Below are positions 3,952-25,193 of a stretch of 49,228 bases of DNA, in pieces. Position numbers and translations under genes: made by a program. Numbering within the stretch: position 1 is the first letter of the stretch; each line of letters begins with the position of its first letter. Location of the stretch: NCBI GenBank assembly GCA_029858555.1, contig JAOUEU010000001.1, positions 1 to 49,228 on the forward strand, read 5' to 3'. The notes under the pieces were generated by a model. It was not told the origin of the DNA. It was given only the letters and a program-made list of their open reading frames with translations, and did not search any database. This stretch comes from Candidatus Zixiibacteriota bacterium (lineage in GTDB: Bacteria; Zixibacteria; MSB-5A5; GN15; FEB-12).

Positions 3952-4365
3952 ATGGTTCGGCAGTCCGCAGCCAGAGTAATCAGCCTTATAGATGAGGAGT
4001 GTCTTGCCGGACCTTCGTCCACAATGCGCGAGCTGGTCGCTAAATTCATCGTCATATCCGGCTATGCGGAGTTCAACCTCGTTCTTGGTCTGGTGTCGGA
4101 CTACCCGTACCATGCCGACCTGGTCGCACAATTCTGTCACGGTAAGGATATTGCCGCCGGCTGGACTCGCAAACCGGACCTTTACGAAATCCTTGAAAAG
4201 CACTGGAAGGTTAGGGGTGGCGGGTGGGCTGACATTGATTTGGAGTCCAGACACTGGAAGTTTTTCGGCCATTCTTCAGCTTATGGCGCTTGCGACAGCG
4301 GTGATCTCAGCTTTGTGGTGACGGAGCACCCGTTTTTCGCAAGTTACTCAATCACGATCGCGTAA
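3952..4365 (+). CDS. Small protein with Janus/Ocnus (PHPT1, 14-kDa phosphohistidine phosphatase)-like motifs
   Basis: The ATG at 3952 lies 5 nt after the PHP gene stop. Motifs YPYHADLV, RGGGW and, 11 residues later, KFFGHSSAYGA line up with human PHPT1 as I remember it (EYHADIY, LGGGR, HVYGYSMAYGPA) with the same GGG-to-GxSxAYG spacing. This is an alignment from memory, not a search. Confidence 0.45.
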   Translation: MVRQSAARVISLIDEECLAGPSSTMRELVAKFIVISGYAEFNLVLGLVSDYPYHADLVAQFCHGKDIAAGWTRKPDLYEILEKHWKVRGGGWADIDLESRHWKFFGHSSAYGACDSGDLSFVVTEHPFFASYSITIA

Positions 4366-4584: not shown

Positions 4585-4941
4585 ATGTTTGAAACTTTCT
4601 ATCCTATCCTCTTTCTGGTCTTTTTTGCGGTGTTTCTGGCTGTTTTACTGGTGCTGATGTCGGTGCTTATCGGGCGGCGGACCCGAATGGGGAAGAAGGG
4701 AATTCCCTATGAGTGTGGGCTGGAGCCGGTCGGGAACACCAGGGAGCCGGTCCCGGTAAAATTCTACATGGTGGCTATCCTTTTTATTCTCTTTGACATC
4801 GAAGTAATATTCCTTTACCCATGGGCCGTGATCTCCCGCAACCTGGGATGGTTTGGCTTTGTGGAGATGTTGGTTTTTATACTGATAATACTGGTCGGCT
4901 ATTTCTATATCCTTGGCAGGGGAGCGCTGAAATGGGATTAG
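4585..4941 (+). CDS. nuoA: NADH-quinone oxidoreductase subunit A
   Basis: 118 aa with three TM segments. Motifs YECGLEP and [12 protein letters not shown] are typical of NuoA/ND3. It is the first gene of the nuo series. Confidence 0.93.
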
Positions 4942-5435
4942 AGGAAAAAATCCCGGATTCAATCATTCTGACGACTCTTGATAAGATGGTTAACTGGTCC
5001 CGGAAGCGCTCTATGTGGCCGCTGGGCTTCGGACTGGCATGTTGCGCGATCGAAATGATGTCGACATTTGCCTCGCATTTTGACCTGGCCCGTTACGGCA
5101 TGGAGGTGATGCGGCCGTCGCCGCGTCAGGCCGACCTGATGATTGTCGCCGGTCGCGTCTCGGTGAAAATGGCGCCGGTGGTGAAAACGCTTTACGAGCA
5201 GATGCCGAACCCCAAGTGGGTGCTGGCCATGGGTGCCTGCGCGTCTTGCGGCGGTGTCTTTAACAATTATGCCATCGTTCAGGGTGTCGATCGAATTATC
5301 CCGGTAGATATCTATGTGCCCGGATGTCCACCTCGCCCGGAGCAGTTGATGGACGGGATATTAAAGCTGTTCGAGAAGGTCGAAAAAGAATCGCTCAAAG
5401 ACAAGCGCGAGGACTGGGGGCGAAAGGCGGGCTGA
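4932..5435 (+). CDS. nuoB: NADH-quinone oxidoreductase subunit B
   Basis: Motifs [18 protein letters not shown] and VPGCPPRPE are the N2 cluster ligands. The ATG at 4932 overlaps the nuoA stop, and the ORF-track start at 4821 is an upstream over-extension. Confidence 0.93.
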
Positions 5436-5489
5436 GGCCTTGGCTTTTACATGTGCGCGGAACCACGTGACATTTGACCTTGTGAAATT

Positions 5490-6023
5490 TTGAACAAGAT
5501 GACCGGCATGGAAGAAAAAGTCAGAAGCTTCATGAAAGCGAACTTCGCTGACGCCATTATCCGTGAAGACGATTTCCGCCAGCAGCAGTCCTTCTATGTC
5601 AAGGCCGAGGCTCTGGTCGACATATGTCGGGCTCTTTATGATGAACCCGAATTGGACGTCAGGTTACTCGCTGACATAACTTCGCTTGATTGGCACGGTC
5701 ATCCTGCGGCAGATGAGGGCCGCTTCGAAGTGGTCTACAATCTATATTCCCTGAACCATAAGTATCGCTTTTTCCTGAAAGTGCGACTGCCGGCCAACGC
5801 TCCCCGCATCGCTACTTTGACCGACCTGTGGAACGGCGCCAACTGGATGGAACGCGAAGTGTGGGATATGATGGGTATTGAATTCGTAGGTCATCCCGAT
5901 TTGACCAAAATACTCACTCCGGATGAGCTGGAGGGTCATCCTCTGCGCCGGGACTTTCCGCTTACGTGGGAGCAACCGCAATTCAGCTGGAACAAGGACA
6001 ATCCCCCCGAGGTGATGAAGTGA
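5490..6023 (+). CDS. nuoC: NADH-quinone oxidoreductase subunit C
   Basis: Motif NWMEREVWDMMGIEFVGHPDLTKIL...HPLRRDFPL is the 30-kDa subunit signature. The start could also be the ATG at 5499 or 5508. Confidence 0.9.
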   Translation: MNKMTGMEEKVRSFMKANFADAIIREDDFRQQQSFYVKAEALVDICRALYDEPELDVRLLADITSLDWHGHPAADEGRFEVVYNLYSLNHKYRFFLKVRLPANAPRIATLTDLWNGANWMEREVWDMMGIEFVGHPDLTKILTPDELEGHPLRRDFPLTWEQPQFSWNKDNPPEVMK

Positions 6024-7195
6024 TGACCGAGAGCAAGACCATCACGATCAATATGGGACCGCAGCATCCGGCCACCCACGGCGTCCTGAGGGTGGTGCTT
6101 GAGATTGAGGGTGAAACGGTTGTCAAGGCGCGTCCGGTAGTTGGCTACCTGCACACGGGGATTGAGAAAACCATGGAGTCCAAGCTGTATTACAAGGCTC
6201 TTCCGGCCACCGATCGCATGGACTACCTGGCCCCGATGTCGAACAACCTCGGGTATTGCCTGGCGGTGGAAAGCCTGATGGAAATCGAGGTTCCGGACAA
6301 AGTCAAGTGGGCCCGCTGTTGCCTGGCCGAACTGACACGCGTAAACTCCCACCTGGTCTGGCTCGGCACCCACGCTTTGGACCTGGGCGCGATGTCCATG
6401 CTGCTGTACACCTTTCGGGAGAGAGAGTTGGTTCTCGATATTTACGAAGCGTGCGGTGGCCAGCGCATGATGACCAGTTACATCCGCATCGGCGGCCTGG
6501 CCCATGACCTGCCGCCCGATTTTGACAAGAAGGTCCGTAATCTTACACGGATCGTGCGCGAGCGTATGCACGACTATGAAACCCTGCTCACGAACAACGA
6601 GATTTTCATAAACCGGACCAGGGGTGTGGCGGTCATCTCCGCCGAGGATGCCATAAATTATTCACTCACCGGCCCGATGTTACGGGGAAGCGGCGTCAAA
6701 CACGATTTGAGGAAAGCGAATCCTTACAGCGGGTACGAGAATTTTGATTTTGAAGTCGCTTTTGGTACTAATGGTGATGCCTATGACCGCTACCTTTTGC
6801 GGCTGGAAGAGATTCGCCAGTCGCTTAGAATATGCGACCAGGCCATCGACGGCATGCCCGATGGACCCTATCGCGCCCATGTACCTGGTGTGGTTCTACC
6901 GCCCAAGGAGGATGTCCTGTACAAGATGGAATCAATGATATTCCACTTCAAGATCATAACCGAAGGCTTCAAGGCTCCGTTTGGCGCGGTGTACCAGGCG
7001 ATTGAATCGCCCAAGGGGGAGTTGGGATTTTACATATCATCGGACGGCAGCAACAAACCCCACCGTGTCAGGGTGCGGCCGCCGGCCTTTGTCAACCTGG
7101 CGGCTCTGCCCAGGCTGGTGGAGGGACGGCTGCTTTCGGATGTGATCTGCGCTATCGGCTCGATCGACATCGTTTTAGGCGAGGTAGACAGATGA
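6023..7195 (+). CDS. nuoD: NADH-quinone oxidoreductase subunit D
   Basis: MTESKTITINMGPQHPATHGVLR is a typical NuoD N-terminus, and the C-terminus is IDIVLGEVDR. The ATG at 6023 overlaps the nuoC TGA by 1 nt. Confidence 0.93.
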   Translation: MTESKTITINMGPQHPATHGVLRVVLEIEGETVVKARPVVGYLHTGIEKTMESKLYYKALPATDRMDYLAPMSNNLGYCLAVESLMEIEVPDKVKWARCCLAELTRVNSHLVWLGTHALDLGAMSMLLYTFRERELVLDIYEACGGQRMMTSYIRIGGLAHDLPPDFDKKVRNLTRIVRERMHDYETLLTNNEIFINRTRGVAVISAEDAINYSLTGPMLRGSGVKHDLRKANPYSGYENFDFEVAFGTNGDAYDRYLLRLEEIRQSLRICDQAIDGMPDGPYRAHVPGVVLPPKEDVLYKMESMIFHFKIITEGFKAPFGAVYQAIESPKGELGFYISSDGSNKPHRVRVRPPAFVNLAALPRLVEGRLLSDVICAIGSIDIVLGEVDR

Positions 7196-7668
7196 TTCTG
7201 AATGAAGAATCGATCAGGCGAATCAAGGAGAAGGCCGCCAAATACCCCCGGCGAAAATCGGCCATCCTCCCGGCTATTACTGTCGCCTATCGTCAGGTGG
7301 GTCACCTCAATGATGATATATACCGTGAGATTTCTCGGATAATCAATATACCCTACGTGGAGATTGCCGAAGCCGCTACTTTTTACACTCTCTTTCCCAA
7401 GAAACCAGTGGGCAAATACCTGATTCAGGTCTGTCACAATATCTCCTGCGCCCTCATGGGGGCCGATTCGCTGGTGACGTATCTCGAGGAGAAGTTGAGT
7501 GTCAGGAAGGGTGAGACCACCGACGATGGTCTGTTCACCCTGATTTCGGTGGAGTGTTTAGGTTCATGTTCAACGGCGCCAATGATGCAGATCAACCAGG
7601 ATTATTACGAGAACCTCACTCGGGAAAGAGTGGATCAGATAATTGATGACTTGAAGGCAAAAGCGTGA
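7192..7668 (+). CDS. nuoE: NADH-quinone oxidoreductase subunit E (2Fe-2S)
   Basis: Cys pattern CHNISCAL...ECLGSCSTAPMMQIN gives the N1a ligands. There is a 4-nt overlap with nuoD. Confidence 0.92.
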   Translation: MILNEESIRRIKEKAAKYPRRKSAILPAITVAYRQVGHLNDDIYREISRIINIPYVEIAEAATFYTLFPKKPVGKYLIQVCHNISCALMGADSLVTYLEEKLSVRKGETTDDGLFTLISVECLGSCSTAPMMQINQDYYENLTRERVDQIIDDLKAKA

Positions 7669-9002
7669 AATTCTACTCGCCGGTCATAACCAACGCCTCT
7701 GAGGCGGCGGCAAACCAGAAGCTGCACCTGTTCCGGTATGTCGAGGATCCGGACCAGTACAGGGTGGATACGTATGAGGCGCATGGTGGCTATCGGGCAT
7801 GGAAAAAGACCCTGACGGCCATGAAGCCCGACGAGGTCATAGAGGAGGTAAAGAAATCGGGACTGCGCGGACGGGGTGGAGCCGGTTTTCCGACAGGCAT
7901 GAAGTGGGGCTTTGTCCCCAAGAGCTCACCGAAACCGCGCTATCTCTGCTGTAATGCCGATGAGTCCGAACCGGGCACGTGCAAGGACCGGGTGCTGATG
8001 GAACGGGATCCGCACGGCGTTATCGAAGGCATGGCTATCGCGGCGTATGCCATTGGCTGTCACATCATGTTCTGTTACATTCGCGGCGAGTTTAACCACT
8101 GCATTGAACGCATGGAAGCGGCTGTGCAGGAGGCATATAAGCGGGGCCACCTCGGCAGAAATATTCATGGCAGTGGCTACGATCTCGATATGGTGGTTCA
8201 TTCCGGCGGCGGCGCCTACATCTGCGGCGAGGAAACAGCGCTGCTGAACTCGCTGGAAGGTGAGAGAGGCATGTCACGTATCCGACCGCCGTTTCCGGCC
8301 GTCGAGGGTCTTTATGCCTGCCCGACGATCGTCAACAACGTCGAATCACTGGCGGCCGTTCCCCATATTATAGCCAACGGCGCGGATTGGTACCGGTCCC
8401 TGGGCACCGAGAAGTCGGCCGGCACAAAGCTTTTCTCTCTAAGCGGCCATGTCAATCGCCCCGGCAACTATGAGGTGGAGCTCGGCTTCTCATTGAAAAA
8501 GCTGATCTACGACCCCGCCTACGGCAACGGCATCCTGGGAGGCAAAAGGCTCAAGGGGGTTATCCCCGGTGGAGCATCGACACCGTTCTTGACGGAAGAC
8601 ATGATCGACGTTGCCCTTGATTACGAGGCGCTGACCGGCGCCGGTTCCATGCTCGGTTCCGGGGCGGTCATCGTCTTTCACGAGGAGACCTGCGTCGTTT
8701 GGGTGATATTGAAACTGATTCACTTCTTCAGACACGAATCTTGTGGCAAATGTACGCCGTGTCGGGAAGGAACCGGTTGGCTGGAGCAAATTATCGAGAG
8801 GATCGAAGCCGGTCAGGGTCAGCCGGGCGACATTGAGAAGATTGAAGATGTCTGCGGCAATATCCTGGGTCGGACTATCTGTCCGCTCGGCGACGCGGCC
8901 GTGATGCCGATTCAGTCAGCGGTTAAACACTGGCGTGAGGAGTGGCAGTATCACATTGAGCACAAGAAATGTCTGGTGAAGACGGAGTTCCCGTTTGGTT
9001 AG
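7665..9002 (+). CDS. nuoF: NADH-quinone oxidoreductase subunit F (FMN/NADH-binding)
   Basis: Motifs GLRGRGGAGFPTGMKW, CNADESEPGTCKDR and ESCGKCTPCREG (N3 cluster). There is a 4-nt overlap with nuoE. Confidence 0.94.
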   Translation: MKFYSPVITNASEAAANQKLHLFRYVEDPDQYRVDTYEAHGGYRAWKKTLTAMKPDEVIEEVKKSGLRGRGGAGFPTGMKWGFVPKSSPKPRYLCCNADESEPGTCKDRVLMERDPHGVIEGMAIAAYAIGCHIMFCYIRGEFNHCIERMEAAVQEAYKRGHLGRNIHGSGYDLDMVVHSGGGAYICGEETALLNSLEGERGMSRIRPPFPAVEGLYACPTIVNNVESLAAVPHIIANGADWYRSLGTEKSAGTKLFSLSGHVNRPGNYEVELGFSLKKLIYDPAYGNGILGGKRLKGVIPGGASTPFLTEDMIDVALDYEALTGAGSMLGSGAVIVFHEETCVVWVILKLIHFFRHESCGKCTPCREGTGWLEQIIERIEAGQGQPGDIEKIEDVCGNILGRTICPLGDAAVMPIQSAVKHWREEWQYHIEHKKCLVKTEFPFG

Positions 9003-9010
9003 GATTCTGG

Positions 9011-11569
9011 ATGGCTGAGGATAATAAGCACCAGGCACAGGGACAGGGCACCGTTACGCTGACTATCGACGGTCAGCAGACGACGGTCGCCAGGGGCACG
9101 ACCGTTCTCGAGGCCGCCCAGGCGTTGGGAATCAATATTCCCACCTTCTGCTGGCACTCGAAACTGAAGTCGGTCGGAGCCTGCCGGATGTGCTATGTGG
9201 AAATAGAAAAAATGGCCAAGCTGCAGGTGTCTTGCGCCACGGAAGCTGTTGACGGCATGGTAGTGCGCACTGATTCCGATCAGGTCAAGCAGGGCCGCCG
9301 AGCCATCATTGAGTTCATCCTCCTGAACCATCCCCTGGACTGCCCCACCTGTGACAAGGGCGGCGAGTGTGACCTTCAGAACCTGACTTTCGCGCATGGC
9401 ATTGATGACAGCCGGTTCGATTTTCAGAAGTACCGGTTCCGCGAAGAGGGTACCGCGTCTACGTTCGATGACGTTCGTATCGGCCCCGAGATTGTTCTCA
9501 ACCGGAACCGCTGTATCTTGTGTTACAAGTGCGTCCGGGCCAACAAGGAGGCTTTTGGCGAGTACGACCTGGGCGTCTACGAACGCGGGAACATAGCGGA
9601 GATCAATGCCGCCCCCGGTGAGCAGGTCGACAATCCTTATTCAGGCAACCTGGTGGAAATCTGCCCGGTGGGTGCGTTGACCAATACGGACTGGCGGTAC
9701 AAAATCAGGGTCTGGCTGACACAGACAACGCCGGCGGTCTGCAATTTCAACAGTTCCGGGGTCAATACCACTTTTTTTAAGGAAAACCACCAGAACCGGA
9801 TATTCCGGGTGACATCACGCCGTAACGATGGCATTGACGACGGCTGGCTGTCGGATGTGACGCGCTATGGGTACCAGATTGTCAATTCCGCCGACCGCCT
9901 GAAGACACCTCTGGTCAAGAAAGAAGGCAAGCAGGTTCCGGCCTCCTGGGAGGAGGCGCTTGTCCTGATTCACCGGCGATTCAGCGAAATCAAAGACAAG
10001 AAAGGCAATGTGTGCATCGGCGGGCTGATTGAGCCAAGCCTGGACAACGCTTCCCTTTACAGCTTTTCGAAGTTCTTCAGGACGGTGTTGCCGTCTAACA
10101 ACATTGACTTCCGCAGCCACTACCGAATGCTTCCCCCGACGGCCGACAGCGTGTTCTCAAAGATGTGCGCACAGCCGTTTAAAATAGCTGATATCGACGA
10201 CTCCGATGTGATCGTCGCCTTCGGGACCGATTTGGTCAGAGAGCATCAAAACGAGTATCTGCGGATACGCAAGGCCCGGAACTTCCATGATGCCAGGATC
10301 TTTGCCGCCAACCCTTATCATGTGAAGTCGGCTGATGTGACCGAACTCGAGCTGGTGTATAGTGTCGGGACCGACGAGAGTTTCCTGAACGCTGTCTGTC
10401 TGGCCGCGATCGAAGAGAAGCTGACCGATTCGGCTGAGGCGGAGGCATACCGTCAGAAAGTGTCACCGTCCAGCCTCGACCAGGCGTCACGCGAGTGCGG
10501 GCTTGATAAGGAAGATTTGAAAAGTCTGGCCCGAGCGCTGGCCGGGGCTCGAAAAGTCACGTTCCTGGCCGGCGAGTTGGTCACTCGCTCAATCGCCCGG
10601 GAGGCAATTGCCGCCGCTCTGGCTAATCTGAACAGGTTGCTGGGGATTAACAGAAAAGGCCAGATGGCGATTCTGCCCCGCTATGCGAATTCGTTTGGCG
10701 CCGAAAAACTCGGGCTGCTGCCCTACCCCAGCGACAATCTTCGCCGCGAACTGACTTCCATGTGGGGTGAATTTCCGGATGCCGAGTCCCACAACACCGA
10801 CGCCATGATGGCTTTGATGAAAAAAGAAGAAATAAGCGGCTTTTTCGTCATGGGCAGCAATCCGGTCATGCTTTATCCCGATCGTGAATTCGCTCGCGAG
10901 GGTTTGGAGAAGCTGGAGTTCCTGGTCGCCTGCGATCTCTTTGAGACTGAGACTACGGCTATTGCCGATGTTGTACTGCCCTTGTGCAGTTGGGCCGAAT
11001 ACGACGGCGAATATGTCAACCTCGAAGGCAAGTCACAGAAATCCGTCCGCGCCGTGAAGCCGATTGGTGAAGCCAGACCCGGCTGCGAGATAATGAATAT
11101 GCTGGCTCCGAAGTTTGGCAAGGTGTTGTTTGAATCGGATGCGACCATGGCGGCGGAGATCGATCGTTTGCTGCAACTTGATGGTGCGCCTGAGCTGCCC
11201 TTCGAGTTTCTCCCGGTGGTTCGGGCCGAATTCGAGCGCGACGAGGCTTACCCTTATCCGCTTTTTGTCTGTGATGACCCTCATCACTCGGGACATCTTA
11301 CCGAGAAGGCGACCTCGCTTGCCAACTTCGTCGGCGAGGCTTATATTGAACTTTCGCCGGAGTCGGCGGCCAGGCATGATTTAAAGCAGGGAGACTCAGT
11401 CCGGGTGGAATCGAAAGTGGGCAAGGTCATTGTTCCGGCCAGAATCTCCGATCATATCGACAGCGATGCCGTGCTGATACCGAGGAATTTTTCCTCGACG
11501 CCGGTAACTTCCCTGCTGATGCGCAAGAAGAGACTGGATTGGGTGCGACTAAGCAAAGTGGATGTATAG
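9011..11569 (+). CDS. nuoG: NADH-quinone oxidoreductase subunit G (75-kDa Fe-S subunit with molybdopterin-like domain)
   Basis: TLTIDGQ...IPTFCWH...GACRMCYVE (2Fe-2S), HPLDCPTCDKGGECDLQ (His-ligated N5) and CILCYKCVRA...ICPVGAL. I chose the ATG at 9011; the ORF-track start at 8969 overlaps the nuoF end. Confidence 0.92.
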   Translation: MAEDNKHQAQGQGTVTLTIDGQQTTVARGTTVLEAAQALGINIPTFCWHSKLKSVGACRMCYVEIEKMAKLQVSCATEAVDGMVVRTDSDQVKQGRRAIIEFILLNHPLDCPTCDKGGECDLQNLTFAHGIDDSRFDFQKYRFREEGTASTFDDVRIGPEIVLNRNRCILCYKCVRANKEAFGEYDLGVYERGNIAEINAAPGEQVDNPYSGNLVEICPVGALTNTDWRYKIRVWLTQTTPAVCNFNSSGVNTTFFKENHQNRIFRVTSRRNDGIDDGWLSDVTRYGYQIVNSADRLKTPLVKKEGKQVPASWEEALVLIHRRFSEIKDKKGNVCIGGLIEPSLDNASLYSFSKFFRTVLPSNNIDFRSHYRMLPPTADSVFSKMCAQPFKIADIDDSDVIVAFGTDLVREHQNEYLRIRKARNFHDARIFAANPYHVKSADVTELELVYSVGTDESFLNAVCLAAIEEKLTDSAEAEAYRQKVSPSSLDQASRECGLDKEDLKSLARALAGARKVTFLAGELVTRSIAREAIAAALANLNRLLGINRKGQMAILPRYANSFGAEKLGLLPYPSDNLRRELTSMWGEFPDAESHNTDAMMALMKKEEISGFFVMGSNPVMLYPDREFAREGLEKLEFLVACDLFETETTAIADVVLPLCSWAEYDGEYVNLEGKSQKSVRAVKPIGEARPGCEIMNMLAPKFGKVLFESDATMAAEIDRLLQLDGAPELPFEFLPVVRAEFERDEAYPYPLFVCDDPHHSGHLTEKATSLANFVGEAYIELSPESAARHDLKQGDSVRVESKVGKVIVPARISDHIDSDAVLIPRNFSSTPVTSLLMRKKRLDWVRLSKVDV

Positions 11570-11572
11570 ACG

Positions 11573-12595
11573 ATGTTTGAAATTGCCCTGTTATCATCGA
11601 TAAAGGTCGTCATCGTCATTGTGGCGATGTTGACCGGGTGTGCCTGGTCCACGTACCTGGAGCGAAAACTCCTGGGGCATTTGCAGCATCGTATGGGACC
11701 CTCTTACGCCGGTCCATACGGCCTCTTGCAGCCCGTCGCAGACGGCCTGAAGCTCATTTTCAAAGAAGATATCGTACCCGACAACGTTGAGAAGATCATA
11801 TATACCCTGGCGCCCATGATCGCGTTCGTGCCGGCTCTCCTGACCTTTGCCGTTATTCCGTTCGGAATCGACCTCACTTTGTTTGGTCACGAAGTGAAAA
11901 TGGTTATCTCGGACCTGAACATCGGCGTGTTGTTTGTCTTTGCCGTGACCTCGCTGGGCGTGTACGGGCTGGTGCTGGCCGGCTGGTCTTCGGGCTCCAA
12001 GTATTCGTTTCTGGGCGGCATTCGTTCATCGGCTCAGATGATTTCTTACGAGGTCAGCTATGGCCTGTCAATCATCGGCGTCATCCTGGTGGCCAACACC
12101 CTGTCGCTGCGGGAACTGGTCGAACAGCAGGCTACGGATTCGGTATGGTTTTTCGCCGGCTGGAACATATGGAAACAGCCTCTGGGCTTTCTTTTGTACA
12201 TCATCTGTGCCATTGCGGAGACCAACCGGGCGCCGTTTGACCTGCCCGAGTGTGAGTCGGAGCTGGTGGCCGGATACCAAACGGAATATTCGTCGATGAA
12301 GTTCGCCACTTTCTACGTGGGCGAGTATGCCAACATGCTGGCGGTGGCGTCGGTGGCGGCCACTCTCTTTTTCGGCGGCTGGCAGGGGCCTTTCCTGCAG
12401 GCCGCACCGTGGCTGTCGGTAGTCTGGTTCGTTCTTAAGGTGTTCCTGTTTATGTGCGTGTATATCTGGTTGCGAGCCACGTTTCCGCGGTTCCGTTATG
12501 ACCAGTTGATGAATTTTGGATGGAAGATTCTGTTACCGTTGGCTCTTCTAAACACGATGGTAACGTCGTTGTTGGTGGTTCTGGGATGGTTTTAA
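11573..12595 (+). CDS. nuoH: NADH-quinone oxidoreductase subunit H
   Basis: Motifs ERKLLGHLQHRMGP, GLLQPVADGLKL and AETNRAPFDLPECESELVAGY are NuoH/ND1 signatures. Confidence 0.94.
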   Translation: MFEIALLSSIKVVIVIVAMLTGCAWSTYLERKLLGHLQHRMGPSYAGPYGLLQPVADGLKLIFKEDIVPDNVEKIIYTLAPMIAFVPALLTFAVIPFGIDLTLFGHEVKMVISDLNIGVLFVFAVTSLGVYGLVLAGWSSGSKYSFLGGIRSSAQMISYEVSYGLSIIGVILVANTLSLRELVEQQATDSVWFFAGWNIWKQPLGFLLYIICAIAETNRAPFDLPECESELVAGYQTEYSSMKFATFYVGEYANMLAVASVAATLFFGGWQGPFLQAAPWLSVVWFVLKVFLFMCVYIWLRATFPRFRYDQLMNFGWKILLPLALLNTMVTSLLVVLGWF

Positions 12596-12607
12596 GGATG
12601 GACGGCG

Positions 12608-13114
12608 ATGAATGAAGTATTAAAAGCGGTGGTAAACTCGGTTATCAAGACGCCCAAAGGCCTTCTGGTCACGCTCAAGCATCTTATCAAAAAACCCGTG
12701 ACGCTCGACTACCCGAAGCGCAAAAAGCCGATGGCCCCTCGCTACCGCGGCAAGCACTATCTCGAACGATACGACGATGGCAGCGAGCGTTGCGTCTGCT
12801 GCGGTCTCTGTGCGGCGGCGTGTCCGGCGGATGCAATCTATATGGAGCCGGAGGAGAACGAAAAAGGCGAGCGTCGGGCGCGGGTTTACGAAATCAACCT
12901 GCTGCGTTGTATCTTCTGCGGTTTCTGTGAAGAAGCCTGCCCGGAGGAGGCCATCTTTCTGGGGCAGGAATACGAGTTTTCCGACTACGATCGGAATTCG
13001 TTTATCTACACCAGGGAGCAAATGCTGGTGCCGCATCCGCGCAAAGACAATCCTTTCAAGCGCATGTTTCGGCGGGTGCGGAAAGTCTACGGAGTATCGG
13101 ACAGGATAAAATGA
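12608..13114 (+). CDS. nuoI: NADH-quinone oxidoreductase subunit I (2x 4Fe-4S)
   Basis: Two ferredoxin motifs: CVCCGLCAAACP and CIFCGFCEEACP. Confidence 0.93.
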   Translation: MNEVLKAVVNSVIKTPKGLLVTLKHLIKKPVTLDYPKRKKPMAPRYRGKHYLERYDDGSERCVCCGLCAAACPADAIYMEPEENEKGERRARVYEINLLRCIFCGFCEEACPEEAIFLGQEYEFSDYDRNSFIYTREQMLVPHPRKDNPFKRMFRRVRKVYGVSDRIK

Positions 13115-13713
13115 ATCTGGATACACTCATATTTCTGGCATCGGCCGTGATCGCTGTCTTCGGCGCAACCATGATGATATCACAGCGTAACCCGGTCGCC
13201 TCGGTACTCTACCTGATACTTTCTCTGCTGGCCCAGGCGGTTTTGTATGTCCAGCTGGGGGCCCTGTTCATGGCGGCGGTGCTTATCATCGTCTATGCCG
13301 GAGCCGTGCTCGTGTTGTTTCTCTTCGTCATCATGCTGCTTAATCTGCGCGGCCGCGAGGACCTCGGCCGACCGTCGCCCCCTTTCAATCGCATAACCAA
13401 GTACACGTTGTCGATCCTTTTCGTAGCACAGTTGGTGATGGTTGTGCGGAGCAGCATTTCCTCCAGCCTCTTCGTTAATATAAAGGACGTCAGTGTCATG
13501 TCGATGCTGCCCGCCGGTTTTGGTTCGGTCGAGGAGGTCGCCACGGTTCTCTTCCAGAAATATCTGTATCCGTTCGAGCTGGTGTCGGTGCTTATCCTGG
13601 CGGCCGTGGTCGGTGCCGTCCTGATGGCGAAGAAGGAGCGCGACGGAGAAGGGCCGCCCGGCGCGGATGCGCGCGGTTCCGTCGAAAATTTAACTGATAG
13701 GGTAACAAGGTAG
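13111..13713 (+). CDS. nuoJ: NADH-quinone oxidoreductase subunit J
   Basis: Hydrophobic ND6-like protein (VYAGAVLVLFLFVIMLL) at the expected operon position, with a 4-nt overlap with nuoI. Confidence 0.88.
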   Translation: MNLDTLIFLASAVIAVFGATMMISQRNPVASVLYLILSLLAQAVLYVQLGALFMAAVLIIVYAGAVLVLFLFVIMLLNLRGREDLGRPSPPFNRITKYTLSILFVAQLVMVVRSSISSSLFVNIKDVSVMSMLPAGFGSVEEVATVLFQKYLYPFELVSVLILAAVVGAVLMAKKERDGEGPPGADARGSVENLTDRVTR

Positions 13714-13715
13714 AA

Positions 13716-14018
13716 ATGGTTCCCGTCTCGGCATATCTGATTGTGGCCATCGTGCTGTTCGGTATCGGCACCATCGGCGTGCTCATATCGCGGAATGTCA
13801 TAATCATATTCATGTCCGTGGAATTGATGCTTAATGCCGCTAACCTTGTCCTGATAGCCTTTTCACGGGCCCTGAATGTGGTGGACGGCCACGTGTTCGT
13901 CTTTCTGGTGCTGTGCGTCGCCGCGGCCGAGGCGGCGGTGGGGCTGGCTATAATTATTACGCTGTATCGTAATCGCGATACGGTTAACATTGATCGCTTT
14001 GATTTGCTGAAATGGTAG
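13716..14018 (+). CDS. nuoK: NADH-quinone oxidoreductase subunit K
   Basis: 100 aa with three TM segments. Motifs MSVELMLNAANL and AAAEAAVGLAI are the ND4L signature. Confidence 0.93.
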   Translation: MVPVSAYLIVAIVLFGIGTIGVLISRNVIIIFMSVELMLNAANLVLIAFSRALNVVDGHVFVFLVLCVAAAEAAVGLAIIITLYRNRDTVNIDRFDLLKW

Positions 14019-14031
14019 GTCACGAGAGAGT

Positions 14032-15969
14032 ATGTCGGAGTACTTGTTTTTAGTCCCGCTTCTGCCGTTTTTCGGTTTTCTGGTAAACGGTCTGCTGTTA
14101 GGACGGCTGCCCAAGTCGGTCATATCGGCGGTCGCCTGCGGCACCGTGGGTATTTCGTTTATTCTCTCCATACTGTTGTTCTTCGAGTTAAAGGGCCTGC
14201 CGCCGGGCGCGCGCGTCATCGAACAAGTGCTCTTCACGTGGATTCCATCGGGAGACATGCTGCACACGAACGTAGGCTATCTGCTCGATCCCCTATCGGC
14301 CGTCATGATTCTTGTAGTAAGCGGCGTGGGCTTCCTGATTCACGTTTATTCGGTCGGCTACATGGGGCATGACGCCTCCTATGGCCGCTTTTTCACCTAC
14401 ATGAACCTGTTTACGTTCTCGATGCTTACCCTGGTGCTGGCCGACAATTTCCTGTTTATGTTCGTCGGGTGGGAAGGTGTCGGACTGTGTTCGTATCTGT
14501 TGATAGGTTTCTGGCACGAGCGCAAATCGGCTTCGGATGCGGGCAAGAAAGCATTCATAGTCAACCGCATCGGGGACTTCGGCTTTCTCATCGGCATTTT
14601 CCTGATTTTCTGGAATGTCGGCTCGCTGGATTTCCGGGTGGTGATGGAGCGTGCCCCGGAGGTCTTCGTGTTCGGCGGGGGGCTCATTACGGCCACCTGC
14701 ATACTTCTCTTCGTCGGGGCGATTGGCAAGTCGGCGCAGATTCCACTCTATGTGTGGCTGCCCGACGCCATGGAGGGCCCGACACCGGTCTCCGCCCTTA
14801 TCCATGCGGCAACTATGGTCACGGCGGGCGTCTACATGATTGCCCGCACTAACCTTTTGTACATGATGGCCCCGGACGCTCTCCTGGTGGTGGCCGTCAT
14901 CGGTGCCCTGACAGCCATCTACGCCGCGACTATCGGCCTGGCACAGAACGATATAAAAAGGGTCCTGGCCTATTCCACTGTCAGCCAGCTGGGCTATATG
15001 TTCCTGGCCTGCGGTGTCGCCTCTTTTACGGCCGGCATCTTTCATCTGATGACACACGCCTTTTTCAAGGCGTTGCTGTTCCTGGGAGCCGGCTCGGTGA
15101 TCCACGCCATGGCGAATGAACAGGATATGCGCAGAATGGGCGGCCTGCGTAAATACATGCCGGCGACATTCTGGACGTTCCTGTTCGCGACACTGGCGAT
15201 TTCCGGTATTCCCGGTTTCTCCGGGTTCTTCTCCAAGGATGAAATTCTCTGGAAATCTTTTTCGTCCGGTCATGGACACTGGCTTTTCTGGGTAATCGGT
15301 TTTGTGACCGCCGGCCTTACGGCCTTTTACATGTTCCGGCTTCTGTATTTGACGTTTTACGGCAAGGAGCGGATGGAGGAGTCGACGCGTTCGCATCTAC
15401 ACGAATCACCCCGAAGCATGACCGTCCCCCTGGTGGTGCTGGCGGTTCTGTCGCTGATCGGCGGCTGGGTGGGTATACCTCACATCCTGGGCGGCACCAA
15501 TTACTTTGAGGGCTGGATGGAGCCGGTCGTATCCGGCGGCCACGCCGCTGCCTCTCAGGCCCTGGCATCGGGAGGAGGCGATGCCGGTATGGAGGTGACG
15601 CTGATGGTAGTGTCGGTGGCGCTGGTGCTGGCCGCCATCTTTGGCGCCTATACCTTCTATAACAAGAGACCGGAACTGGCCACGGCCTGGCGGTCGAGAT
15701 TGTCCGGGGTGCACCACCTTCTTGTGAACAAGTATTTTGTCGATGAGATTTACGGGACGATCCTCGTGCGGCCGGTGGTCTATTTCTCGCTCTTCCTGTG
15801 GAAAGTCTTTGATGTCGTCTTCATCGACGGCTTTATCAACGGGGTGGCGAGTGTGTACAGCGACATCTCGGAGACGGTCCGCACCGCTCAAACCGGGCGG
15901 GTGCGCACTTATGCGACCGTCTTTCTTTTGGGCGTCGTTGTGATATTAGCGTACTTCATCTGGATATAG
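14032..15969 (+). CDS. nuoL: NADH-quinone oxidoreductase subunit L
   Basis: 645 aa, antiporter-like. Motifs include WEGVGLCSYLLIGFW, WLPDAMEGPTPVSALIHAATMVTAG and LAYSTVSQLGYM. Confidence 0.94.
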   Translation: MSEYLFLVPLLPFFGFLVNGLLLGRLPKSVISAVACGTVGISFILSILLFFELKGLPPGARVIEQVLFTWIPSGDMLHTNVGYLLDPLSAVMILVVSGVGFLIHVYSVGYMGHDASYGRFFTYMNLFTFSMLTLVLADNFLFMFVGWEGVGLCSYLLIGFWHERKSASDAGKKAFIVNRIGDFGFLIGIFLIFWNVGSLDFRVVMERAPEVFVFGGGLITATCILLFVGAIGKSAQIPLYVWLPDAMEGPTPVSALIHAATMVTAGVYMIARTNLLYMMAPDALLVVAVIGALTAIYAATIGLAQNDIKRVLAYSTVSQLGYMFLACGVASFTAGIFHLMTHAFFKALLFLGAGSVIHAMANEQDMRRMGGLRKYMPATFWTFLFATLAISGIPGFSGFFSKDEILWKSFSSGHGHWLFWVIGFVTAGLTAFYMFRLLYLTFYGKERMEESTRSHLHESPRSMTVPLVVLAVLSLIGGWVGIPHILGGTNYFEGWMEPVVSGGHAAASQALASGGGDAGMEVTLMVVSVALVLAAIFGAYTFYNKRPELATAWRSRLSGVHHLLVNKYFVDEIYGTILVRPVVYFSLFLWKVFDVVFIDGFINGVASVYSDISETVRTAQTGRVRTYATVFLLGVVVILAYFIWI

Positions 15970-15972
15970 CGA

Positions 15973-17550
<1,578 letters not shown>

Positions 17551-17554
17551 ACGC

Positions 17555-17767
17555 ATGGCCGACGTGACCATATATACCAAGGAAGGCTGCCCGTATTGCG
17601 AGGCGGCGAAAAAACATTACAACGACGAAGGTGTCGCCTTCAAGGAGATCGACGTTCATCAAAAGCCGGGCGCCAAAGAGAAAGTCCTGGAACTTACCGG
17701 CGGCCAGCGTATCGTGCCGGTGATCGTTGATGGCGCCGAAGTCAAAATCGGCTTTGGCGGCGGCTGA
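17555..17767 (+). CDS. Glutaredoxin-like protein (CPYC; YruB/NrdH-like); possible selenoprotein extending to 17776
   Basis: MADVTIYTKEGCPYCEAAKKHY...IVPVIVDGAEVKIGFGGG has a thioredoxin-fold CxxC motif and a cis-Pro VP motif. The ATG at 17555 lies 4 nt after the nuoM stop. The terminating TGA (17765-17767) is followed by GGG TTC TGA (see findings). Confidence 0.8.
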   Translation: MADVTIYTKEGCPYCEAAKKHYNDEGVAFKEIDVHQKPGAKEKVLELTGGQRIVPVIVDGAEVKIGFGGG

Positions 17768-17783
17768 GGGTTCTGAAGGCAGG

Positions 17784-17798
17784 CTGGCAGTTAGCCGG
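17784..17798 (+). other. Small hairpin 17 nt downstream of the glutaredoxin TGA (candidate minimal SECIS-like element)
   Basis: CTGGC (17784-17788), loop AGTTA, GCCGG (17794-17798). The stem is 5 bp including one G-U pair. The loop contains G-U, and its G lies 23 nt after the UGA. It is short and weak on its own, so this is only a candidate. Confidence 0.2.
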
Positions 17799-17812
17799 AC
17801 GAGTAAAATAGT

Positions 17813-19261
17813 ATGATAGATTTAGCATCGTTATCGGCCAATTTCGGTATTATTTCCCCGGAATTATCCCTGTTAATCGGGGCATCGCTTATCCTGCTGG
17901 TGGGCTATATAAAGAACCTGGGGAAGATCTGTTCTTCGATAGCGCTGCTCGCCTTGCTGCTCGCCCTGGTGTTTTCGTTGCACCAGTGGGGACGTCAGGT
18001 CTCGGGGTTTTTCGGAATGGTTACCTGCGACGGCTTTGGCGTGGCCTTCAAGATCATCTTCACGGTGGTGGCCATTCTCGCTCTGCTTATCGCTCATCGT
18101 TTCCTGACGGCGAAGCGGATAGAGCGCCCCGAGTTCTATGCCCTCTTGCTGATATCGACCGCCGGTATGATGGTTATGGCCAACACCACCGACCTGGTCG
18201 TGATGTTTATTGGTCTGGAGATCATGTCGGTGCCGCTGTACGTTCTGGCCGGATTCGCCCGCCGGTCGCTGGAGTCTAATGAAGCGAGTATTAAGTATTT
18301 TATCATGGGGGCGTTTGCCAGCGCTTTCCTGCTGATGGGTATTGCCTTTGTGTTTGGGGCGTCAGCCACGACCGACTTGCGCCGTATCGTCGCCGACTTC
18401 AGCTTCATCGTCTCCAACTCGCAGGCCTATATGTTCACCGGCGTTGCCCTCATTCTGATCGGCTTCGGCTTCAAGGTGGCGGCGGTGCCTTTCCACGCCT
18501 GGGTGCCTGATGTCTATCATGGCGCGCCGACACCCGTGACGGCCTTTTTCTCAGTGGGCCCGAAAGCGGCCGGCTTTGCCGTGTTGCTCAGGATATTCAC
18601 GTTCGGATTTGGAAGAATGGTCGAGCTTGACATGGTTTTCTGGGTACTGGCGGTGCTGACTATGACGGTCGGCAATGTCCTGGCGCTGCGGCAGGACAAC
18701 GTCAAACGCATGCTGGCCTATTCGTCCATTGCCCATGCCGGCTACATTCTGGTGGCCTTTGCCGTCGGCGGCGCCGAGGCTGTCTCGGCCGCTGTCTTCT
18801 ATCTGGTGGCTTATACCATGTTTAATCTCGGGGCCTTCGCCATCGTGACCCTGCTGGAAACCCGCAGCGGCTGCAAATCCGAGTTTTCAGAGTTGGCCGG
18901 TCTGTCGAAATCCAGCCCTTACCTGGCGGCGGTGCTGGCGCTGTTTATGTTCGCCCTGGCGGGTTTTCCACCGACGGTTGGTTTTGTAGGCAAATTTTAC
19001 ATATTTGCCGCGGCGGTCAAAAACGGGTATATCTGGCTGGCCGTGATTGGCGTTATGAATTCATTTGTCTCCGTGTACTACTATTTGCGGGTGATAAAAA
19101 CCAGTTGCCTCGACCACCACGAAGGCGCCTTTGTCCGCGCCCCTTATTCATTTTCTATAATTCTGGTCCTGTTCATCACCGTCATAGGGACGCTTGGCCT
19201 CGGATTCTTCCCACAACGGCTGCTGGAATTTTCGCAGGCGGCCATCTTTGCATTTCTGTAA
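17813..19261 (+). CDS. nuoN: NADH-quinone oxidoreductase subunit N
   Basis: 482 aa, ND2-like. Motifs GLEIMSVPLYVLAG, PFHAWVPDVYHGAPTPVTAF and LAYSSIAHAGY. It is the last gene of the operon. Confidence 0.93.
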   Translation: MIDLASLSANFGIISPELSLLIGASLILLVGYIKNLGKICSSIALLALLLALVFSLHQWGRQVSGFFGMVTCDGFGVAFKIIFTVVAILALLIAHRFLTAKRIERPEFYALLLISTAGMMVMANTTDLVVMFIGLEIMSVPLYVLAGFARRSLESNEASIKYFIMGAFASAFLLMGIAFVFGASATTDLRRIVADFSFIVSNSQAYMFTGVALILIGFGFKVAAVPFHAWVPDVYHGAPTPVTAFFSVGPKAAGFAVLLRIFTFGFGRMVELDMVFWVLAVLTMTVGNVLALRQDNVKRMLAYSSIAHAGYILVAFAVGGAEAVSAAVFYLVAYTMFNLGAFAIVTLLETRSGCKSEFSELAGLSKSSPYLAAVLALFMFALAGFPPTVGFVGKFYIFAAAVKNGYIWLAVIGVMNSFVSVYYYLRVIKTSCLDHHEGAFVRAPYSFSIILVLFITVIGTLGLGFFPQRLLEFSQAAIFAFL

Positions 19262-19366: not shown

Positions 19367-20182
19367 TCAGAACATATCTATGTAAGTAATGCGTATTTCG
19401 CGCGTGATTTTCTCGCCGCGGCGGTTTCCGGAAAGATTCTTGATAAGCGCCTCCAACTCCAGGTTCTCAGTGAAAAGCCACTTTACCGACATGTTGAAGT
19501 AGCCTCGCCCTTTGCCGGCGAAAATGTAATCCGTGCCGTCGGGGAGTCTCGACTTGTCGTCGTTTAAAGCCACGTCATACTCCATCAGCAGGGCCAGATT
19601 GTATCGGAAAGTGGCGTCGAACCCGACGAAAAAATCCATATCCTTGTCCTTGTCGATATCGTTTTCCAGCGAATAGCTGGCGCCGCCGTGCCATCCTGCC
19701 GTCCACTGGTAGAAGTAGAAGCTGCGGCTGGCGACAACGTAAAACCCGCGCGACTTGAAGGTATACCGATCAAAATCTTCATTCCAGGCGCCGTATCCCT
19801 GTGAAGAGAACCCGGCCGTAACGGCCGGGAAGTACTCCATCTCGTCGATTACGCGAAACTTGATATTGAACTCAATGCGCTTATTCCAGTTCGGGTCCCG
19901 GTTGGATATGATATTGTCGCCGCCATACGATATGCCCAGCATCAGTCGGTTGGAGAGCCCGATATTGGTGTAGCCGATACTGCCGCCGTTGGGATACAGG
20001 CGCAGGCCGATGTCAAAATGAGCGCGGGGGAGGGTCCCTGCTGTGGGCATGTCGACCAGTTGCCGCGGGGGTACGTCAAACAGGCTGCCACTGGTTGCCA
20101 CAAGCTCCTCCTGCGCCGTTGCAAATCGGCCCAGGAAACCCGCCAATCCCACAATCAATATGTTGCGTAACGTCCTTGTCAT
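19367..20182 (-). CDS. Uncharacterised secreted protein, probable outer-membrane beta-barrel
   Basis: Signal peptide MTRTLRNILIVGLAGFLGRFATAQ. The sequence alternates aromatic/hydrophilic residues and is Gly/Tyr-rich, and it ends in ...ITYIDMF (terminal Phe typical of OMPs). A strong SD (GAGGAGGA) precedes the ATG. I do not recognise a family. Confidence 0.5.
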   Translation of the reverse strand: MTRTLRNILIVGLAGFLGRFATAQEELVATSGSLFDVPPRQLVDMPTAGTLPRAHFDIGLRLYPNGGSIGYTNIGLSNRLMLGISYGGDNIISNRDPNWNKRIEFNIKFRVIDEMEYFPAVTAGFSSQGYGAWNEDFDRYTFKSRGFYVVASRSFYFYQWTAGWHGGASYSLENDIDKDKDMDFFVGFDATFRYNLALLMEYDVALNDDKSRLPDGTDYIFAGKGRGYFNMSVKWLFTENLELEALIKNLSGNRRGEKITREIRITYIDMF

Positions 20183-22731: not shown

Positions 22732-22758
22732 GAGTTAGAACTTATTGTAAGGGTGTCT

Positions 22759-23361
22759 ATGGCAAAGCAGACTGAAAAGGACATCGATTACTCTCTGATA
22801 AGAGCCGTTCAGAACGGCGATATGGTGGCTTTCAACGAATTGGTCGACCGCTATAAGGGTCGCCTGATGAACGTGATTGGCCGTATGTTGTCTTCGACCG
22901 AAGAGGCGGAGGATATTGTACAGGAGACCTTTGTCCGCGTCTACCAGCACCGGCAATCGTTCAACTTCGAACATTGCTTTTCCACGTGGATTTATACCAT
23001 AGGTCTCAATCTGGCGCGGAACGAGTTGCGCAAAAGGAAGAAGTTCAAATATTACGAGATATCGGAGATGCAGGGAAACGAGAAGGAGTTCGCGGTCGAG
23101 ATGAAACTGCCTACTCGTTTACCCGAAGTACTGGACACGGCCATCAAGCAGCTTCCGGAAAAGTATCGCACGGCGTTTATGTTGCGGGACGTTCAGGAGA
23201 TGCCGTACGAGGAGGTTGCCAAGATTCTCAGTGTTCCGCTGGGTACGGTCAAATCACGGGTGAACCGTGCCCGGATGATGTTGCGAGACAAGTTACAGCC
23301 GAGAATGGAGGAATATAATGCGTTGTCGAAAAGCACGCTCCTACCTGTCAGCATACTGTAA
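22759..23361 (+). CDS. RNA polymerase ECF (sigma-70 family, group IV) sigma factor
   Basis: Region 2 is FNELVDRYKGRLMNVIGRML...AEDIVQETFVRVY...FSTWIYTIGLNLARNELRK. Region 4 is LPEKYRTAFMLRDVQEMPYEEVAKILSVPLGTVKSRVNRARMMLR. Confidence 0.9.
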   Translation: MAKQTEKDIDYSLIRAVQNGDMVAFNELVDRYKGRLMNVIGRMLSSTEEAEDIVQETFVRVYQHRQSFNFEHCFSTWIYTIGLNLARNELRKRKKFKYYEISEMQGNEKEFAVEMKLPTRLPEVLDTAIKQLPEKYRTAFMLRDVQEMPYEEVAKILSVPLGTVKSRVNRARMMLRDKLQPRMEEYNALSKSTLLPVSIL

Positions 23362-24007
23362 CGACGAGCTTACCGATCGTCGCAGGCTGGCGGTCAACGA
23401 GCATCTTTCGACCTGCTCATCTTGTCGAAAGGAGGAGGCGTTTCAGCGATCGCTTCGTCTGGCCGAGAAGCAGTTGCCCCGGCTGGCGGTATCGAACGAC
23501 TTCAACACCCGGCTTCTCAACCGGATTGCCGCCGAGCGCTTTGCCGAAACGAGAACGAAAGCCTATCTGCCTAAGCGGGCCCCGGTACTGGCCTGGAGCA
23601 AGGTGGTCCCCGCTGCGGCTATGACACTGGTTTTTCTGGTCATGGGAGTAATTACATTCCTGCCCGATAAGAACGGAGATCCGGGCTACATCGCGGCCGG
23701 TGATGCGGCTACTTCAGACAACCGGTACCTGACCGTTCAACCGGTGAACAATCCCAATATGACCATTAACCTTGACAAAGACTGGTCGCTTAATGCTCAG
23801 TTGGCCCGGGCGGAGAGAATTAACCGTATTTCCGACCGAATCACTCCGGCGGGGAGTTTCGGCCTGGCTTCGAATGTCACACAGGTTTCTTCCCGGAGTA
23901 TCCGGCCGCTGCCGTATGTCGACCATTATTTCCAGGTGCGGTCGGTGGTCCGAATTTATAAGTCGACCGAGACATCTTCCGCAGAGGAGGATTTGAAGAC
24001 GTACTAA
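23318..24007 (+). CDS. Anti-sigma factor, zf-HC2 (ZAS) type, single-pass membrane protein
   Basis: N-terminus MRCRKARSYLSAYCNDEL...NEHLSTCSSC carries the H-x3-C-x2-C motif. One TM segment (VVPAAAMTLVFLVMGVITFL). GGAGGAA SD 5 nt before the ATG. Its position immediately after the ECF sigma supports the call. Confidence 0.8.
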   Translation: MRCRKARSYLSAYCNDELTDRRRLAVNEHLSTCSSCRKEEAFQRSLRLAEKQLPRLAVSNDFNTRLLNRIAAERFAETRTKAYLPKRAPVLAWSKVVPAAAMTLVFLVMGVITFLPDKNGDPGYIAAGDAATSDNRYLTVQPVNNPNMTINLDKDWSLNAQLARAERINRISDRITPAGSFGLASNVTQVSSRSIRPLPYVDHYFQVRSVVRIYKSTETSSAEEDLKTY

Positions 24008-24008
24008 A

Positions 24009-25193
24009 ATGTTAAAGACTCGTCTAAAGGCCGCCGCCGGAATCCTGTCGCTTACCTTGGGGGCGGTCTTTTTTTCATCGGCCGCATATCCAAGCGACAG
24101 TTCCCTGTTCAACCTCGAATCGGGCTTGAACGATCTTGTCTATCGGCTCACTCGCTCGGTCGTGACCGTGGAATCCTCACACTCTCTGAGGATCGGCGTT
24201 GCGCAGGGGGCACAGGAGGAATCGGTCCACAACCTCATCTCCTCGGGGATAATCTATGATTCGACCGGTCACGTTCTGGTGGAAGCCTCCTCTCTGCTCG
24301 ACCACGACCGGATAATCGTAAAGTACGGCAACTACATATTGCCGGCGCGACTGGTGGGCATTGACTATCAGACAAATGTTGCCGTCCTGAAGGTCGATCG
24401 ACCTCTGGGGACCGCGGTTAGACTCGCCGATCAGTATGGCTGTGCCGGCCGCATGGTGATAGCGGTCGGTAACGCCTATGGGATGCAGGCCTCTCCGTCG
24501 ATCGGCTTCTGCGCCGGGTTCCGACCTGACGGCACCATCCAGTTCTCAGGACCGATTACGTCGGGGACCATCGGAGGCGGTTTGTTTGACCTGGCGGGCA
24601 ACCTCGTCGGGATTATCACCGGTGGGATCGGCGAGGGCAGAATGGCCGAGGTAGGGCTGGCGGTTCCGGCTTACAAAATACCGGCTATCGTCGAGCACAT
24701 CGTCAACCTGGGCGACCGGCAGGCCGGATACATCGGCATAACCACCGCCGATATTGAGATAGTGCCGGCGGTGGAAATCAGTTCCCCGTTTCGACTGACC
24801 GGCGGCCGCAACGCGAGCCGGACAGTGATCAACAAGGCTTTGCTCGTAACCGCTGTCGTGCCTTCGTCCCCCGCGGACCGGTCCGGGCTGCGCAAAGGCG
24901 ATTTGATTTTCGGCGTGGACGGTCGCGAGTTGGACTCTGCCCGGGACTTGATGAACCTGGTACAGCAAGGTAAACCCGGAACACGGCTGGAGTTGAGCCT
25001 GATTCGGCAAAATGCTCCTTTGTACGCGCAACTGGTTATCGGGCAGAAGCGGCTGACGCCGTCGACCCGCTTCTTGAGAACCCCGGGCGCGTCCGGGAGC
25101 ACTCTGGATATTCCGGACTCCCTTCAACGTGAGATCACGGTCTTGAAGCAGATGATTCAGAATTTGGAAACCCGCCTCGAGAGTCTCAGATAG
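24009..25193 (+). CDS. HtrA/DegP-like (S1C fold) + PDZ periplasmic protein with substituted catalytic triad (predicted non-proteolytic)
   Basis: Signal peptide present. The trypsin-fold blocks align with E. coli DegP: SSGIIYDSTGHVLVEASSL vs GSGVIID..GYVVTNNHVV, TNVAVLKV vs SDIALIQI, and GTIGGGLFDLAGNLVGI vs GNSGGALVNLNGELIGI. The PDZ block is SPADRSGLRKGDLIFGVDGRELDS. His, Asp and Ser of the triad align to Ser, Asn and Ile. Confidence 0.75.
   Translation: MLKTRLKAAAGILSLTLGAVFFSSAAYPSDSSLFNLESGLNDLVYRLTRSVVTVESSHSLRIGVAQGAQEESVHNLISSGIIYDSTGHVLVEASSLLDHDRIIVKYGNYILPARLVGIDYQTNVAVLKVDRPLGTAVRLADQYGCAGRMVIAVGNAYGMQASPSIGFCAGFRPDGTIQFSGPITSGTIGGGLFDLAGNLVGIITGGIGEGRMAEVGLAVPAYKIPAIVEHIVNLGDRQAGYIGITTADIEIVPAVEISSPFRLTGGRNASRTVINKALLVTAVVPSSPADRSGLRKGDLIFGVDGRELDSARDLMNLVQQGKPGTRLELSLIRQNAPLYAQLVIGQKRLTPSTRFLRTPGASGSTLDIPDSLQREITVLKQMIQNLETRLESLR

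Follow-up and report, generated by a model that had tools for sequence, protein, structure and literature searches.

In bacteria, selenocysteine (Sec) is inserted with the help of a SelB-bound hairpin located just 3' of the UGA codon. Glutaredoxin-like proteins of about 70 residues in which Sec is third from the C-terminus and then followed by the stop codon are collected in the NCBIfam model NF041212 ("Uxx-star family glutaredoxin-like (seleno)protein"), with the sub-families NF041114 (family 1), NF041211 (family 2) and NF047338 (family 3). A review of prokaryotic selenoproteins from 2026 also includes the UXX-star families and refers to Zhang & Gladyshev 2008 and Haft & Tolstoy 2025; for family 1 it gives the motif UxxT and the presence of two Sec residues (PMC13188914). 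The consensus of bacterial SECIS elements (bSECIS) in the same review has an apical loop of 3–9 nt, an upper stem of at least 4 bp and a G in the first two loop positions, 16–37 nt from the UGA (PMC13188914).

Within the window, by which we mean the whole stretch of 49,228 nucleotides that was analysed, a small glutaredoxin-like gene is inserted in a complex I operon. Comparison with its relatives indicates that it is very probably a genuine C-terminal selenoprotein gene with the tail ...GFGGG-Sec-Gly-Phe. A candidate C-terminal Sec of the U-x-x-stop type had been proposed here before from the window alone (the original prediction), and the proposal is now backed by the family HMM, by the agreement of 88/88 loci, by counterparts with Cys and by a covarying hairpin. 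The UXX-star family is already curated in NCBIfam and reviewed, and the gene in the window adds one member to it. With the family itself catalogued, its linkage to complex I is the part worth following up.

Gene, protein family and predicted fold

As read from the sequence, the CPYC glutaredoxin-like ORF has 70 sense codons (17555–17764, forward strand) that encode MADVTIYTKEGCPYCEAAKK...VKIGFGGG, and its ATG lies 4 nt behind the nuoM stop. The coordinates given in the original prediction for the first TGA, for the two sense codons GGG TTC and for the second TGA are exact (Table 1), the Gly run GFGGG stands ahead of the first TGA as described there, and the roughly 5 percent chance that it assigned to a second stop two codons on agrees with an expectation of ~4–5%.

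Table 1. Positions of the Uxx-star gene, its elements and the surrounding complex I genes in the window.
Feature	Position	Strand	Evidence and remarks
Complete complex I operon, nuoA-B-C-D-E-F-G-H-I-J-K-L-M-[Uxx-star]-N, 14 subunits	4585..19261	+	NCBIfam match per subunit
nuoM	15973..17550	+	TIGR01972 NDH_I_M, 643 bits; TGA stop at 17548-17550
Shine-Dalgarno-like AAGGAG	17542..17547	+	7 nt 5' of ATG 17555, within the nuoM end; putative function
Putative Uxx-star selenoprotein CDS, full	17555..17776	+	73 codons + stop, MADV...IGFGGG-U-G-F-stop; NF041212, PF00462, 88/88 loci alike
CPYC redox motif, Cys12-Pro-Tyr-Cys15	17588..17599	+	Invariant in alignment A1; N-terminus of helix 1 in the AlphaFold model
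UGA, proposed selenocysteine, residue 71	17765..17767	+	TGA in 88/88 loci; Cys here in distant relatives
Gly72-Phe73 after the proposed Sec (GGG TTC)	17768..17773	+	Synonymous variation of the Gly codon; Phe/Ile/Val last
True stop codon, TGA in the window copy	17774..17776	+	Position fixed, identity variable across loci
Candidate SECIS hairpin	17783..17800	+	In the 36-nt spacer before nuoN; fold -9.0 kcal/mol; match of covariance model R1
nuoN	17813..19261	+	TIGR01770 NDH_I_N, 438 bits; next gene in the operon

The family label named in the original prediction exists: it is that of NF041212, the best NCBIfam match to the protein. The 70-aa form scores 113.3 bits (cutoff 66), and the score rises by 7.8 to 121.1 bits when the tail Cys-Gly-Phe is added, with Cys standing for Sec, positions 1–70 of the 70 in the profile being covered; the curated HMM takes in the three tail positions. 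Pfam recognizes only the generic Glutaredoxin domain (PF00462, 56 bits). Scores for the sub-families are below the cutoffs of family 2 (83.8–86.5 vs. 100 bits) and family 3 (79.8–83.9 vs. 97 bits) and marginally above that of family 1 (74.6–80.2 vs. 72 bits), whose UxxT motif and two Sec residues are replaced by CPYC and one Sec in the window protein. It therefore apparently belongs to the general Uxx-star family and to no named sub-family. It has the ~70-residue glutaredoxin fold of the NF041212 proteins, and the proposed Sec is likewise third from the C-terminus.

An AlphaFold model built with 25 homologues (pLDDT 88) has the order beta1-alpha1-beta2-alpha2-beta3-beta4, i.e. a minimal thioredoxin fold that lacks the usual C-terminal helix, and model confidence is lower over the last ten residues. 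The closest solved structures found by Foldseek are glutaredoxins and NrdH-redoxins, with TM-scores of 0.76–0.84. Best matches in both sequence and fold are 4tr0, 1fov, 1h75, 4hs1 and 4fiw from the NrdH-redoxin/glutaredoxin 3 group, which share with the window protein the CxxC motif, the VP motif with its cis-Pro and the GF motif after strand 4; in contrast, their C-terminal helix is replaced by GGG-Sec-Gly-Phe in the window protein. No solved structure with such a Sec tail was present among the structural matches. The product is thus predicted to be a 73-residue cytoplasmic protein of the Uxx-star family with a glutaredoxin/NrdH fold.

Probable recoding of the UGA and the downstream hairpin

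Homologous DNA was taken from metagenomes and from a collection of genomes at species level, which gave 88 loci with the window counted in. The loci were retrieved solely by peptide motifs from within the protein (GCPYC[AE]AA and G[QEK]xIVP[VI]I[VI][ED]) and not by the tail, so the 3' ends of these genes are unbiased. As their first stop, 88/88 loci have TGA (TAA or TAG in 0/88), and exactly two codons separate it from the true stop in all of them, for which TAA (42), TAG (26) and TGA (20) are used. The first tail codon encodes Gly in 81/88 loci (GGA 29, GGC 23, GGG 17, GGT 12), and the second encodes Phe, Ile or Val in 87/88. Because Gly is specified by four synonymous codons and the residue after it is hydrophobic, selection on the two codons past the apparent stop is at the amino-acid level and not at the RNA level.

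This pattern of an invariant TGA, a second stop of any identity and a tail conserved as protein argues against a reading in which translation genuinely stops at the first TGA, the product is an ordinary 70-residue glutaredoxin, and the hairpin is an intercistronic RNA element that mimics coding conservation and serves stability, processing or translational coupling for nuoN. Such a reading, which we consider very improbable, would agree with public annotations that end at 70 aa, with a window hairpin that is not significant by itself and with the lack of sel genes in the window, but it is also at odds with the gain in NF041212 score that the tail brings and with the existence of Cys-x-x-stop homologues. 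The latter were recovered by an exhaustive profile-free search for distant relatives among 1.8 billion representative proteins and are P0153 (...GVGCAF), P0192 (...GYCGI), P0194 (...GGSCSF), P0219, P0222, P0244 and P0265. Pairing of Cys with Sec is a classical hallmark of selenoproteins. Homologues with Cys aligned to the TGA, a conserved two-residue tail and a stop, which the original prediction had named as the support to look for, were hence found; homologues ending uniformly at GFGGG, a missing second stop or a lack of Cys counterparts, which it had named as contrary evidence, were not seen.

No counterpart with Cys was found among the close, nuo-linked relatives. Among the best 120 proteins, all sequences inspected end at the UGA, with no alignment extending into the three tail residues of the query, and the public homologues among the matches listed have 70 aa and are named "glutaredoxin family protein" or "NrdH-redoxin". 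Sec therefore seems to be fixed within the nuo-linked clade and to be uniformly missed by annotation. Short C-terminal Sec tails are lost in this way, and the residue that likely defines the chemistry of the protein is missing from the databases.

Other variants of the 3' end occur in the wider family. A separate group of proteins (P0148, P0150, P0156, P0177, P0200 and P0214) ends GG-[S/T/A/R]-[D/E/T/S]-[F/I], with neither Cys nor Sec and a tail of the same three-residue length as in Uxx-star proteins. In locus L156 (2096–2713), and likewise in L146, L152 and L160, a C_GCAxxG_C_C "putative redox-active" domain is fused ahead of the glutaredoxin domain; these fusions end GFGGG-U-[AT]-I-stop and have the hairpin GCGGC-AGUCU-GCCGC. 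In the distant relative P0215 the Sec position is taken by Trp (...GGTWGV), which may be a TGA that was translated under a Trp code.

P0215 is also the sequence to which one could appeal for a UGA that is read through but not as Sec, either by near-cognate suppression with Trp, Cys or Arg or in a reassigned code, although its Trp may only reflect the TGA=Trp code of the gene caller. We give this explanation hardly any credence. TGA is the commonest ordinary stop in the window, where it ends 17/38 main ORFs, including nuoM, and this gene itself, and is therefore not reassigned in the organism. The Cys/Sec pairs with distant homologues likewise speak against it, and a hairpin that covaries, has a SelB-type G-U loop and lies at SECIS distance is a specific trait of Sec decoding.

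The hairpin of the original prediction, CUGGC-AGUUA-GCCGG at 17784–17798, is present. Described there as short, with 5 bp including one G-U, it comprises five standard pairs and, as added by ViennaRNA, a sixth pair G17783-C17800 beyond the bulged A17799, so that the stem 17783–17788 is paired with 17794–17800 and the loop AGUUA occupies 17789–17793. The loop G-U lies 23–24 nt after the UGA, with a spacing of 21 nt and the G at loop position 2. In RNA folding, which the original prediction had proposed as a check, the single copy in the window is not significant, whereas covariation and the bSECIS constraints hold for the family. The folding energy of the window hairpin is matched by 17/200 shuffles (z = -1.5), and a wider fold of the region has z = -0.26. 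Evidence from the window sequence alone is accordingly weak, since a second stop at this distance is a 4–5% event and the hairpin is matched by shuffled sequences.

Comparative analysis of the hairpin was based on alignment A2, which consists of 83 distinct segments that start 6 nt ahead of the UGA and extend to 45 nt behind it. RNAalifold found one 6-bp helix with compensatory double changes at every pair; the outermost pair, for example, is GC in 30, UA in 18, CG in 10 and AU in 8 segments. Helix cells are paired in 97.1% of cases as compared to 74.3% in column shuffles, and the covariation score is 0.66 as compared to 0.20, neither value being reached by any of 500 shuffles (0/500 each). 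Both signals are abolished when the 3' partner of the helix is slid. Within the first two loop positions a G occurs in 83/83 segments, the loop is GGUC in 47/83, and it starts 16–23 nt after the UGA across the family. The published bSECIS constraints accommodate the family as well as the window copy, with its 5-nt loop and 5–6 bp stem, even though the latter stands at the weak end of the family with the loop AGUUA instead of GGUC and one G-U. Chance is ruled out because 88/88 loci share the TGA, the two codons and the stop, and because the helix covaries.

Covariance model R1, built from the family, has this hairpin as its sole match in the window (35.7 bits, E 6e-8) and thus detects no second one. 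Rfam gave no match at gathering thresholds in the whole window, and only chance-level matches (lncRNA and sroH, E above 1) when the hairpin region was searched with E up to 10. An intrinsic terminator was considered and rejected; a T-run is absent, and terminator prediction did not call the hairpin.

Compared to the SECIS of E. coli fdhF, extracted from the MG1655 genome, most relatives have the identical apical loop GGUC, while the window copy has the loop G-U; the loop follows the UGA by ~20–25 nt in both. The Uxx-star stem is short (5–8 bp) and lacks the long lower helix of fdhF, and an equivalent of the bulged U is not evident. A further difference is location: because only two codons follow the UGA, the whole Uxx-star hairpin is situated behind the true stop, in the intergenic spacer. 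A SECIS entirely outside the coding region is unusual for bacteria, and from the 83 distinct sequences a minimal hairpin of the SelB type can be modelled cleanly, with covariation.

The complex I operon and the remainder of the window

The Uxx-star gene is located between nuoM and nuoN in 72 of the 88 loci. Both nuoM upstream and nuoN downstream were confirmed in 53/53 clade loci that have both flanks, and 19 more loci with one usable flank agree. On the related 3.84-Mb contig L162, Pfam labels give the same order nuoE...M-Grx-N. A neighbour-joining tree places 68 of the 72 nuo-linked genes in a single pure clade and the other four in a second small group; the named relatives are MAGs of Zixibacteria (Candidatus Zixiibacteriota). 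The remaining 16 loci are more distant Uxx-star genes outside the nuo context, among them one that neighbours a heavy-metal P-type ATPase gene and several of the C_GCAxxG_C_C fusions.

No publication was found that describes a nuo operon with a glutaredoxin or selenoprotein gene in it; the primary description of the UXX-star families, which is reportedly that of Haft & Tolstoy 2025 in mSystems, lay outside that search. Publications on selenoproteins or Sec use in Zixibacteria were likewise searched for and not found. The placement in the nuo operon is hence the part for which we found no published description, and the novelty of this context is unconfirmed.

NCBIfam scans of 48 ORFs revealed none of selA, selB and selD within the 49-kb window, and ARAGORN detected neither a tRNA nor a tRNA-Sec there. 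NCBIfam, ARAGORN and Rfam together bear out the earlier statement that the window is devoid of sel genes. That the lineage uses selenocysteine is suggested by the Uxx-star gene. Searching the window for another in-frame TGA with long flanks returned off-frame artefacts only. A NifS/IscS-type cysteine desulfurase gene (31422–32609) was considered as selenocysteine lyase SclA and rejected (125 bits vs. a cutoff of 525). It is followed by the gene of tRNA 2-thiouridine synthase MnmA (both within 31422–33712), and its weak SclA likeness together with this pairing assigns it to a sulfur relay and not to the Sec machinery.

Positions 22753–25193 hold a cluster of an ECF sigma factor, an anti-sigma factor and a DegP/HtrA-type protease. 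After this cluster, at 25240–25908, a 222-aa protein is encoded that has weak similarity to carboxymuconolactone decarboxylase (AhpD-like). The AhpD-like fold is sometimes found in selenoproteins elsewhere; no in-frame TGA was seen in the gene of the 222-aa protein. Genes for TamB-like (1177 aa), BamA/Omp85-like (640 aa) and AsmA-like (949 aa) proteins at 25908–31360 and 34721–37570 are related to outer-membrane assembly and indicate a diderm envelope. ORFs 32–733, 1519–2904, 3892–4365, 19367–20182 (reverse strand) and 37623–39479 had no NCBIfam match at the thresholds used.

Putative function and comparison with known systems

In the mechanism that we propose, the gene would be transcribed as part of the nuo operon, and a complex of SelB, GTP and Sec-tRNA(Sec) would be held on the hairpin ~20 nt downstream when the ribosome meets the UGA at 17765. 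Sec would be delivered at residue 71, two more residues would be added and translation would end at 17774, while failure of Sec insertion would release the 70-residue product without the tail. After strand 4, the Sec-bearing, Gly-rich tail would take the place of the usual C-terminal helix. In NrdH and glutaredoxin structures the active site is bordered by the GF motif that follows strand 4, and for this reason the tail is expected to exit the sheet next to the CPYC site. A mobile selenol could then form a Cys12-Sec71 selenenylsulfide and exchange with the CPYC dithiol, passing electrons to or from a partner. Given the fold and a tail beside CPYC, a mobile selenol relay is the most likely chemistry; we infer redox relay from the fold, the conservation of motifs and the gene order.

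Sec might instead be inserted as a ligand of a metal, a metalloid or an Fe-S cluster, which would make the protein a chaperone or scavenger. Complex I is rich in Fe-S clusters, and a metal-ligand role has been suggested for the Uxx-star family (PMC13188914). The distant variant L145, and also L140 and L144, has the 3' end VAPGGG-U-G-I and comes immediately after the gene of a heavy-metal P-type ATPase that carries an HMA domain (in L145, ATPase at 92–2431 and Uxx-star gene end at 2702), which fits the metal-related role put forward in the literature for some members. For the protein of the window we regard this role as less likely than the redox relay, but as an alternative to be taken seriously. 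The Pro-containing CPYC motif is typical of dithiol reductases and disfavours cluster binding, as known from glutaredoxin biochemistry in general, and NCBIfam scans found no metal transporter in the nuo neighbourhood.

Returning to the redox relay, the fixed position between nuoM and nuoN suggests, from gene order only, a partner in complex I itself or in its assembly or repair. We tentatively propose, as one possibility, that the Uxx-star protein is a dedicated complex I accessory in a Zixibacteria-type lineage, whose Sec tail may keep thiols or Fe-S sites reduced or may aid assembly. If this were true, selenium supply would tune complex I via the full-length and the 3-residue-truncated product, and the relationship between mitochondrial Grx2 and complex I would have a bacterial counterpart that depends on selenium. 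Through the conserved nuoM/nuoN insertion, a probable selenoprotein is connected with complex I in a phylum that is uncultured, which provides a testable hypothesis of how a bacterial respiratory enzyme is maintained in its redox state.

Two known systems resemble the proposed one. As in the Gly-Cys-Sec-Gly arm of thioredoxin reductase, Sec would be near the C-terminus on a Gly-flanked flexible tail by a dithiol centre, and in both cases failure of Sec insertion would leave a product that is only a few residues shorter. Unlike thioredoxin reductase, the window protein has no Cys adjacent to Sec and no flavin domain, and its own CPYC would be the partner; the likeness would thus be a resemblance in design only. 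The second system is mitochondrial glutaredoxin 2, which acts on complex I thiols (e.g., PMC2529008). There, too, a glutaredoxin is tied to complex I, whereas the link in the window is one of gene order only; glutaredoxin 2 has a CSYC motif, is free of Sec and is encoded elsewhere, which makes the correspondence an analogy and not a homology of the system.
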